Positions 21,452-22,659 of a stretch of DNA of 54,070 nt are shown here, one piece after another. This DNA is from Actinomycetota bacterium. Lineage in GTDB: Bacteria > Actinomycetota > Aquicultoria > CAJVYJ01 > JAUVQD01. The stretch lies in NCBI GenBank assembly GCA_030679975.1, contig JAUXSL010000022.1:1-54070 (forward strand), written 5' to 3'. The notes beneath the pieces were generated by a model. It searched no databases and was not told the origin of the DNA. It worked only from the letters and a program-made list of their open reading frames with translations. Numbering within the stretch: position 1 is the first letter of the stretch; each line of letters starts with the position of its first letter. Made by a program: the position numbers and the translations under genes.

Positions 21452-22659
21452 CGTATCTTAACTTTCCGTTAAAATCAAACCGAGCACTGCTTAGGCCGGA
21501 AGGGCGTGGCAGACCGACCACCGTTTGGTTGCAGTAACGCAGACCGTAACTCAGCTTGGGTCGTCACGCCCTCTTCCTGCAAAGCCCGAACAGTTGTAAG
21601 GGCCAATCAATGCGAAGCCCGCATTTGCGAGGACGGGACAAAAGGAAGGTGATGCAAGTGGAACTATTTGTGGGTATTGATGTCTCAAAAACCAGGCTAG
21701 ATGTCGATTGTGCGCCGGAGTCGAGAAGCTACTCCGCCGAGAACAGCGATGAGGGCGTGGGCTTATTGGTGGACAATCTGAAAGAAATCGGTCCAACCCT
21801 GATTGTATTGGAGGCAACCGGCGGCTATGAGGCTGCTGCAGTCGCAGCTATTGCCGAAGCAGGTCTTCCGGTTGTTGTTGCAAATCCTAGAAATGTCAGG
21901 GCTTTCGCGAGAGCAACGGGGCGATTGGCTAAGACCGACGCACTAGACGCGCAAGTATTGGCAGAGTTCGCCATGATTATTAAACCAAAGGTCAGAGATC
22001 TGCCGGACGCTGTGAGTGCCGAGCTCAAAGCTTTGTCGACCAGAAGACGCCAGCTAATCGAAATGTTGGTTGCCGAGGGCAATCGGCTTAGCGCCGCGCC
22101 TAAACCGGTGCGGCCGAATATCGAGGCTCACATCAATTGGCTTAAAGATGAGCTAAAAAAGCTGGACGGCGATATTTCATCATTCATTAAAGCCAATGTC
22201 TCTTATCAGGAAAAAGACCAGATACTTAAAAGTGCGCCAGGTATCGGTCCGGTTATCTCAACCATGCTCCTTTCGGAATTGCCGGAACTCGGCACTCTAA
22301 ATCGCAAACAGATATCGGCCCTCGTTGGTGTGGCGCCGTTCAACCGAGACAGCGGCAAGTTTCGAGGCAAACGCAGGGTGTATGGCGGCCGGGCGAATGT
22401 GCGCACCGCGCTTTATATGGGAGCACTGGTAGCGACTAGACACAATCCCGTCATCAAAGAATTCTATGCTCGTCTGATTGAAGCCGGCAAACCGGCCAAG
22501 GTAGCGCTTGTCGCTTGCACGCGCAAATTGCTTACAATCTTAAACTCTATGGTTAAGCATCAAAGAACTTGGCAGGAACGCTCTCTTGCGATTTGTTGTT
22601 AATTCTTTCATTCTTGTACTTTGAAAACTAAATAATTGTTTTCAGTTAAGACAGTTGCT
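21452..22659 (+). mobile_element. IS110-family insertion sequence inserted within attC site 1
   Basis: A DEDD transposase ORF is flanked by a 200-nt 5' and a ~55-nt 3' non-coding end. Subterminal inverted repeats tcttaact (21456-21463) and agttaaga (22644-22651) are present. The same gct trinucleotide sits at both junctions. Confidence 0.85.
21652..22602 (+). CDS. IS110-family DEDD transposase/recombinase
   Basis: Has [21 protein letters not shown], the [17 protein letters not shown] motifs and a C-terminal Transposase_20-like region. RBS AAGGAAGG lies upstream of the ATG at 21652. Confidence 0.9.

Follow-up and report, generated by a model that had tools for sequence, protein, structure and literature searches.

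The window, i.e., the stretch of 54,070 nucleotides of DNA that was analysed, carries on its plus strand an insertion sequence (IS) of the IS110 group that splits an attC site. The element consists of a left end of 206 nt (21452–21657), a gene for a DEDD recombinase and a right end of 55 nt (22603–22657). The element and the two parts of the attC beside it comprise the following features.

21389–21451, plus strand: left part of the split attC (R'' gcataac, L'' tccagcgg and the left half of L'), including the left target accaccg (21443–21449)
21452–22657, plus strand: insertion sequence of the IS110 group, 1206 bp and one CT core in addition, with ends as in multi-copy relatives
21452–21463, plus strand: right donor half cgtatctt and subterminal inverted repeat tcttaact (21456–21463)
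21470–21475, plus strand: −10-like hexamer taaaat inside ttaaaatc; TAAAAT or TAATAT in relatives L082–L086, whatever their flank
21499–21650, plus strand: predicted bridge RNA, match to covariance model R1 (101.5 bits, E = 1.5e-20)
21502–21571, plus strand: predicted target-binding loop module, outer stem 21502–21515 with 21559–21571, inner hairpin 21527–21545
21517–21525, plus strand: predicted left target guide (LTG) accaccgtt, equal to the left flank accaccg at 7/7 non-core positions; at the core a U·G wobble, then U-A
21547–21554, plus strand: predicted right target guide (RTG) taactcag, whose reverse complement CTGAGTTA agrees with the right flank CTGATTTA at 7/8 positions
21585–21637, plus strand: predicted donor-binding loop module, outer stem 21585–21588 with 21634–21637, inner stem 21600–21603 with 21617–21620
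21590–21596, plus strand: predicted left donor guide (LDG) acagttg, equal to the terminal heptamer of the right end
21626–21631, plus strand: predicted right donor guide (RDG) ugcgag, pairing with CTCGTA (core plus start of the left end) with one G·T wobble
21658–22602, plus strand: DEDD recombinase gene, 314 aa, GTG start, ribosome-binding site aggaagg at 21643–21649
22603–22657, plus strand: right end, with left donor acagttg at 22651–22657 and subterminal repeat agttaaga at 22644–22651
22658–22676, plus strand: core CT and right part of attC (rest of L' gattta; R' gttatct at 22670–22676)

The ends of the family were fixed by comparing copies within multi-copy genomes, and the guides were not consulted for this purpose. 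The right end of these relatives reads ..AAGACAGTTG and is followed by CT, and the left end starts after CT with TGTATCTT... The junctions in the window are gacagttgCT at the right end and CTcgtatctt at the left end; as these ends are shared with the multi-copy relatives, the IS spans 21452–22657 plus one CT. The CT core is present at both junctions (21450–21451 and 22658–22659), as the first-pass annotation had stated, there is no target-site duplication, and removal of the IS with one CT leaves an intact attC. The subterminal repeat tcttaact pairs over 8 bp with agttaaga and brackets the 12-bp donor centre, while the most frequent length of this inverted repeat in the family is 4–5 bp (AAGA..TCTT), with 4 bp in the closest relative, L082. 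No further copies of the element were found in the 1.76-Mb host genome, and this single copy gives no sign of recent activity.

The recombinase contains the Pfam domains DEDD_Tnp_IS110 (PF01548, 1.8e-25) and Transposase_20 (PF02371, 1.4e-19). Among solved structures in the PDB its only homologues are ISCro4 (1e-43) and IS621 (5.4e-41), to which it aligns over residues 4–300, and the motifs GID, EAT, KTDAxDA and SG are identical in the alignment with ISCro4. An in-frame ATG at 21652 is ATA in L082, which makes the GTG at 21658 the conserved start. For comparative analysis we collected homologues at 80 loci with 53–67% protein identity from species-representative genomes, several of which hold many copies.

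Just 5' of the recombinase gene lies a structured RNA core of 137 nt (21502–21638). The first-pass annotation had proposed a bridge or seek RNA in this end and had made the proposal dependent on a conserved two-loop structure in homologous elements; such a structure is present in their left ends and covaries (26 sequences), and its model is found in all 87 related loci. The left ends of relatives share a common layout, in which the first module consists of a long stem round an internal loop and a small GGUC/GACC hairpin, and the second takes the form GCCCG-loop-GGGC..GCCC-loop-CGGGC. RNAalifold, run on 26 diverse sequences, predicted both outer stems, and 12 pairs hold through two-sided changes. 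We also drew a 25-pair structure by hand and scored it on the 26 sequences against 500 column shuffles with five measures: 96% of the cells were paired, 12 pairs were compensatory, and not one of the 500 shuffles reached the observed value of any measure. Sliding the partners by 1–3 columns as a control lowered pairing to 32–49%. The outer stem of the target module shows compensatory changes in 10 of its 13 pairs. The stems of the donor loop (93–99% paired in the 26 sequences) are almost invariant and thus contribute little to the covariation support. Since G-U pairs occur at several columns, the structure fits the plus (gene) strand only. A minimum free energy fold of the single sequence (z = −2.0) recovered the target module correctly but mis-paired the donor module, and the comparative structure was therefore used instead. 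Covariance model R1 matched 81 of 81 sources, each of them once and immediately upstream of the gene, and it also matched all six newly fetched loci at 94–102 bits. Searching the window and the whole host genome with R1 returned no match besides 21499–21650.

A scan of 20600–23600 against Rfam found no family at its own threshold, the best candidate being sX15 on the opposite strand at 21 bits. This match to sX15 (RF02234, a Xanthomonas sRNA) occupies 21492–21651 of the minus strand over the full model length (21.3 bits, E = 1.5), and the donor-loop motif GCCCGAACAGUUG is contained, as its reverse complement, in the sX15 consensus. sX15 and asX7 are mutually complementary and plasmid-borne, with 10 homologues in S. 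maltophilia K279a (PMC3300014). The sX15 locus may be an IS110-type bridge-RNA locus that was catalogued on the opposite strand. Separately, two loci of a Dehalococcoidia relative (L025 and L028) score 58.7 bits with the RNA model vs. 105.7 bits in sister copies, and their similarity to the sisters ends inside the target loop with a break near position 1346, which suggests that their left end is disrupted or rearranged.

The target guides were read off the alignment to the model, the LTG as the nine bases after a conserved CCG and the RTG, on the 3' strand of the first loop, as the bases ending in AG ahead of a conserved C. Guide and flank were compared in 36 distinct target loops with both flanks, using 10,000 permutations. 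Of 7 non-core positions, the LTG agreed on average with 4.94 in the left flank of the same element vs. 2.93 in the flanks of other elements; for the reverse complement of the RTG, the corresponding values in the right flank were 4.58 vs. 1.65 of 5. Total matching was as high as observed in none of the 10,000 permutations. The pairing scheme is that published for IS621. Covariation of the guide positions with the flanks of other insertions, on which the first-pass annotation had also staked its proposal, is thus observed, with different targets accompanied by different letters that fit their own flanks.

All three string matches that had given rise to this proposal exist in the window, and two of them coincide with guides. 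The heptamer accaccg at 21517–21523, identical to the left flank at 21443–21449, occupies the LTG position on the 5' strand of the loop, where it covaries with the flanks across relatives; the core positions of this LTG read UU instead of CU. Likewise, acagttg at 21590–21596, identical to the right end at 22651–22657, occupies the LDG position on the 5' strand of its loop and covaries with the element ends. The expectation that the matching strings lie in loops rather than stems consequently holds for these two of the three but not for ttaaaatc (21469–21476), which is indeed a one-mismatch complement of gatttaaa (22660–22667) but precedes the structured RNA on its 5' side. We rejected ttaaaatc as an RTG, because it stands outside the loops and does not track the target: it is unchanged in L086, whose flank is gagtta, and reads ctaatatt in L082. 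The actual right target guide is taactcag (21547–21554), which had been overlooked and which agrees with its own flank at 4 of 5 non-core positions.

At the donor side, the LDG of relatives is mostly ACAGTTG, and each of the variants ACAGTCG, ACGGTTG and ACAGGTG equals its own right end. Left ends that begin with CTC (the window copy, L002, L081 and L082–L087) are accompanied by GCGAG in the RDG and those that begin with CTT, reading CTTGTA, by GCAAG, such that the C at 21452, which is T in most relatives, is compensated in the RDG.

Two relatives illustrate targets of other kinds. L002, which of all loci from the genome collection is the most closely related (67% protein identity), lies within a group II intron reverse transcriptase-like open reading frame (L002:1180–1300 and 2440–2620; ..CRYADDVNVYVRSKK.. 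/ ..LKLKVNSNKS..FLGFSF), and its LTG agrees with this flank at 8 of 9 positions. A single contig of a Dehalococcoidia MAG holds at least 10 copies (L011–L016, L019, L021–L023) in REP-like repeats of the form ..CATCCT/GAGCCCGYCGAAGG.., and both their LTG TTTCATCC and their RTG GGCTCAG fit these repeats.

The site occupied in the window is of a different nature. Joining 21389–21451 to 22660–22680 yields a canonical attC with R'' gcataac, L'' tccagcgg, L' ccgctga and R' gttatct, which resembles six other sites of the array; CCGCTGA is common to all of them save the half-site and site 7. Further insertions of close relatives were sought by a metagenome scan with the LTG context of the window, which contributed one contig, and by look-ups of the four closest proteins. 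Their flanks and guides compare as follows, with percentages giving protein identity to the window copy.

Window copy: left flank accaccgCT, LTG ACCACCGTT; right flank CTgattta, RTG reverse complement CTGAGTTA, one mismatch
L082 (93%): left flank accaccgCT, LTG ACCACCGTT; right flank CTgattta, RTG reverse complement CTGATTTA, perfect
L083 (88%): left flank accaccgCT, LTG ACCACCGTT; right flank CTgattta, RTG reverse complement CTGATTTA, perfect
L084/L085 (88%): left flank aaccgccgCT, LTG ACCGCCGCT, 9/9; right flank CTgattta, RTG reverse complement CTGATTTA, perfect
L086 (80%): left flank gaaaccgCT, LTG AAAACCGTT; right flank CTgagtta, RTG reverse complement CTGAGTTA, perfect

All five sampled insertions (the window and four relatives) are at CCG/CT/GA of the L' box in one orientation and are followed after a few bases by an R' box (cgttRR or cgttcc). 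The insertion sequences of this close clade are 76–91% identical and their flanks 50–73% identical; given this divergence of the flanks and the different cassettes beyond R', they represent five separate insertions. Programming of the RNA for attC L' boxes, as had been suggested, is borne out by these insertions at the same L' point of different attC sites. Guides within the clade vary only where the L' boxes vary, and the centre CCG-CT-GA is kept. The RTG reads taaatcag in L082, L083 and L084 and taactcag in L086; the window copy combines an LTG of the L082 type with an RTG of the L086 type, hence the one mismatch to its own site. When unoccupied sequences of the host genome were ranked by their match to the 14-nt target, three of the top four (at most one mismatch) were in attC sites, and one of these three was perfect. 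Unoccupied attC sites that contain the 14-nt target with no or one mismatch lie at C6:2274–2287, C6:199–212 and C125:21593–21606 of the host genome (G000). An empty site was sought in five other genomes of the family and none was found. L087 (72% amino-acid identity) and L002 (67%) have unrelated targets, which confines attC homing to the close clade. Taken with the structure, these sequences make it very probable that the plus strand at 21502–21638 specifies a bridge RNA with two internal-loop modules and guides for attC L', belonging to an intact element of the IS110 group.

The RE-CT-LE junction generates TTGAC[AT], a 17-nt spacer and TATCTT in 38 of 50 distinct junctions of the family. The junction of the window copy reads TTTTCA, 17 nt, TATCTT, and an alternative of TTGCTC, 17 nt, TAAAAT scores 8/12. 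A consensus promoter scan of the integrated copy detected none in the left end. Because the −35 element of the junction is degenerate in the window clade (TTTTCA vs. TTGACA) and the scan of the integrated copy was negative, we infer expression of the RNA. The −10-like hexamer within ttaaaatc may be part of a promoter that is completed by the right-end TTG in the circle junction. In IS621 and ISEc21 a promoter is reconstituted on the circle, similar to the junction promoter of the present family (ISEc21: PMC11187229).

Alternative explanations concern both the RNA itself and its target. The left end could be a mere 5' untranslated leader or promoter of the transposase gene, in which short matches arise by chance, a concern that the first-pass annotation had itself raised. 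The region does hold a ribosome-binding site and a −10-like box, and 7-nt matches occur in 1–3% of shuffled left ends; when the 200-nt left end was shuffled 20,000 times, the matches were found singly in 1.8%, 3.3% and 1.2% of cases and never all three together. As guide-flank matching of the 36 loops also exceeded all 10,000 permutations and stem covariation all 500 shuffles, we regard this explanation as hardly credible. It is very unlikely as well, if less implausible, that activity resides in a short seekRNA (~60–100 nt) which arises by processing and comprises the target module only, with the donor-loop region being just DNA or leader. Such an RNA has precedent in the 74-nt seekRNA purified with the ISEc21 transposase, of which a 58-nt form sufficed (PMC11187229), and the strongest stem covariation is indeed in the target module. 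However, conservation of the donor-loop module extends to all 87 loci, the LDG with its three variants and the G/A of the RDG track the element's own ends as a donor-binding loop predicts, and the recombinase is nearer to those of IS621 and ISCro4, elements that employ the two-loop RNA in full.

A bridge RNA could also be present while its location in attC is incidental, i.e., the 14-nt target happens to occur there and the lineage is no attC specialist. The single copy in the host genome, the unrelated targets of relatives at or below 72% amino-acid identity (L087 and L002) and the one of four near-perfect matches in the host genome that falls outside attC are compatible with this. In contrast, each of the five insertions of the clade (at least 77% identical to the window in DNA) occupies an attC site of its own, with L' position and orientation shared by all, their guides differ only where the L' boxes differ while retaining CCG-CT-GA, and three of the four best unoccupied genome matches are attC sites, making an incidental location rather unlikely.

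The bridge RNA is best compared with IS110-group elements for which a bridge recombinase and a bridge RNA have been described, IS621 and ISCro4 (Durrant et al. 2024, PMC11208160; Hiraizumi et al. 2024, PMC11208158; PDB 8WT6, 9T56). The features that were looked for in an IS621-type element, namely recombinase domains, end lengths, a two-loop RNA, target and donor loops and the core, were all found. Common to these elements are a recombinase of about 315–340 aa with DEDD and Tnp domains, a long left and a short right end, an RNA 5' of the gene in which the target-binding loop precedes the donor-binding loop, and the CT core within the pairings. Further, to the left of the core LTG and LDG are identical with the top strand, to its right RTG and RDG are complementary to this strand, and most family members have a predicted RE-LE junction promoter. 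In contrast to IS621 and ISCro4, the sequence is distant here (phmmer E about 1e-41 to 1e-43), the core positions of the LTG are often other than CU in the present family, an integron attC L' box serves as target, and the element is known from sequence alone. Moreover, the RTG reads five bases past the core, whereas that of IS621 is a 4-base guide, and the subterminal inverted repeat measures 4–8 bp vs. the 2–3 bp reported for the IS110 group. As far as sequence comparison can tell, architecture, guide order and recombinase place the element with the IS621-type elements of this group. The bridge RNA is a well-supported further example of the mechanism already described for IS621 in 2024, which it leaves unchanged.

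A group of IS1111 elements in attC sites (ISPa21, ISPst6, ISKpn4 and ISPa25) was reportedly described by Tetu and Holmes in 2008 and by Post and Hall in 2009. A seekRNA has been demonstrated for this IS1111-attC group by Siddiquee et al. 2024 (PMC11187229). Like the element studied here, its members are RNA-guided insertion sequences with a DEDD transposase that insert in one orientation at a fixed point of one attC end and split the site. In elements of the IS1111 type the gene is followed by a long non-coding region, which contains the guide RNA, and within this RNA the top-strand match comes before the bottom-strand match (PMC11187229), whereas in the window the RNA and all four guides are upstream and only 55 nt lie downstream of the gene. 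The LTG (21517–21525), which would pair with the bottom strand, precedes the RTG (21547–21554), corresponding to the order in ISEc21, and the transposase has 314 aa vs. 330–350 aa. Subterminal inverted repeats of IS1111 elements are 7–17 bp long, a range that includes the 8 bp of the window but not the 4–5 bp most common in the family.

ISEc21, an IS110-type element with an upstream seekRNA (PMC11187229), likewise has the bottom-strand match first and the top-strand match second. Its upstream non-coding region is needed for circle formation and targeting, and its relative ISMch6 has been naturally retargeted by few guide changes (PMC11187229). ISEc21 differs from the present element in that its transposase belongs to a longer subgroup (345–385 aa), its target is a conserved stretch of IS3-family transposase genes, and a short RNA of 58–74 nt is sufficient (PMC11187229).

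By analogy with IS621, an IS621-like DEDD recombinase would bind the bridge RNA and exchange strands at the CT core. LTG and RTG in the target-binding loop would pair with the target, on the left with the bottom strand and on the right with the top strand, the core included. In the donor-binding loop, acaguug (LDG) and ugcgag (RDG) would pair with the right and left ends where these abut in the excised, circularised IS. The outcome would be insertion without duplication into the L' box ..ACCACCG/CT/GATTT.. in one orientation, by which the attC is split, and the model predicts insertion at the CT of the targets ACCACCGCTGATTT and ACCACCGCTGAGTT. Transcription, recombinase binding, a circular intermediate and the chemistry would be as in IS621, ISCro4 and ISEc21, from which we infer them.

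No attC targeting outside the IS1111 group is described in the literature that we searched. We think it probable, as one joint reading, that the clade is an IS110-group attC specialist with an upstream two-loop RNA, whose homing evolved independently of the IS1111-attC group and at a different part of the site (L'), and which is naturally retargeted among arrays: the centre of its guides reads CCG-CT-GA while the outer letters drift with the attC, and its range includes integrase-less arrays of an Actinomycetota-like genome. The mechanism itself is already known; the added value is modest and lies in the L' specialisation and in the natural series of guides and targets. The element adds a fully decoded natural bridge-RNA system, comprising ends, core, four guides and target, and the guides of close relatives, changing in step with their targets, provide a record of natural retargeting. 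The element further shows that RNA-guided homing to integron attC is not limited to the IS1111 group, which bears on the disruption and fusion of cassette arrays, and such elements may serve as a marker for attC sites in poorly studied phyla.
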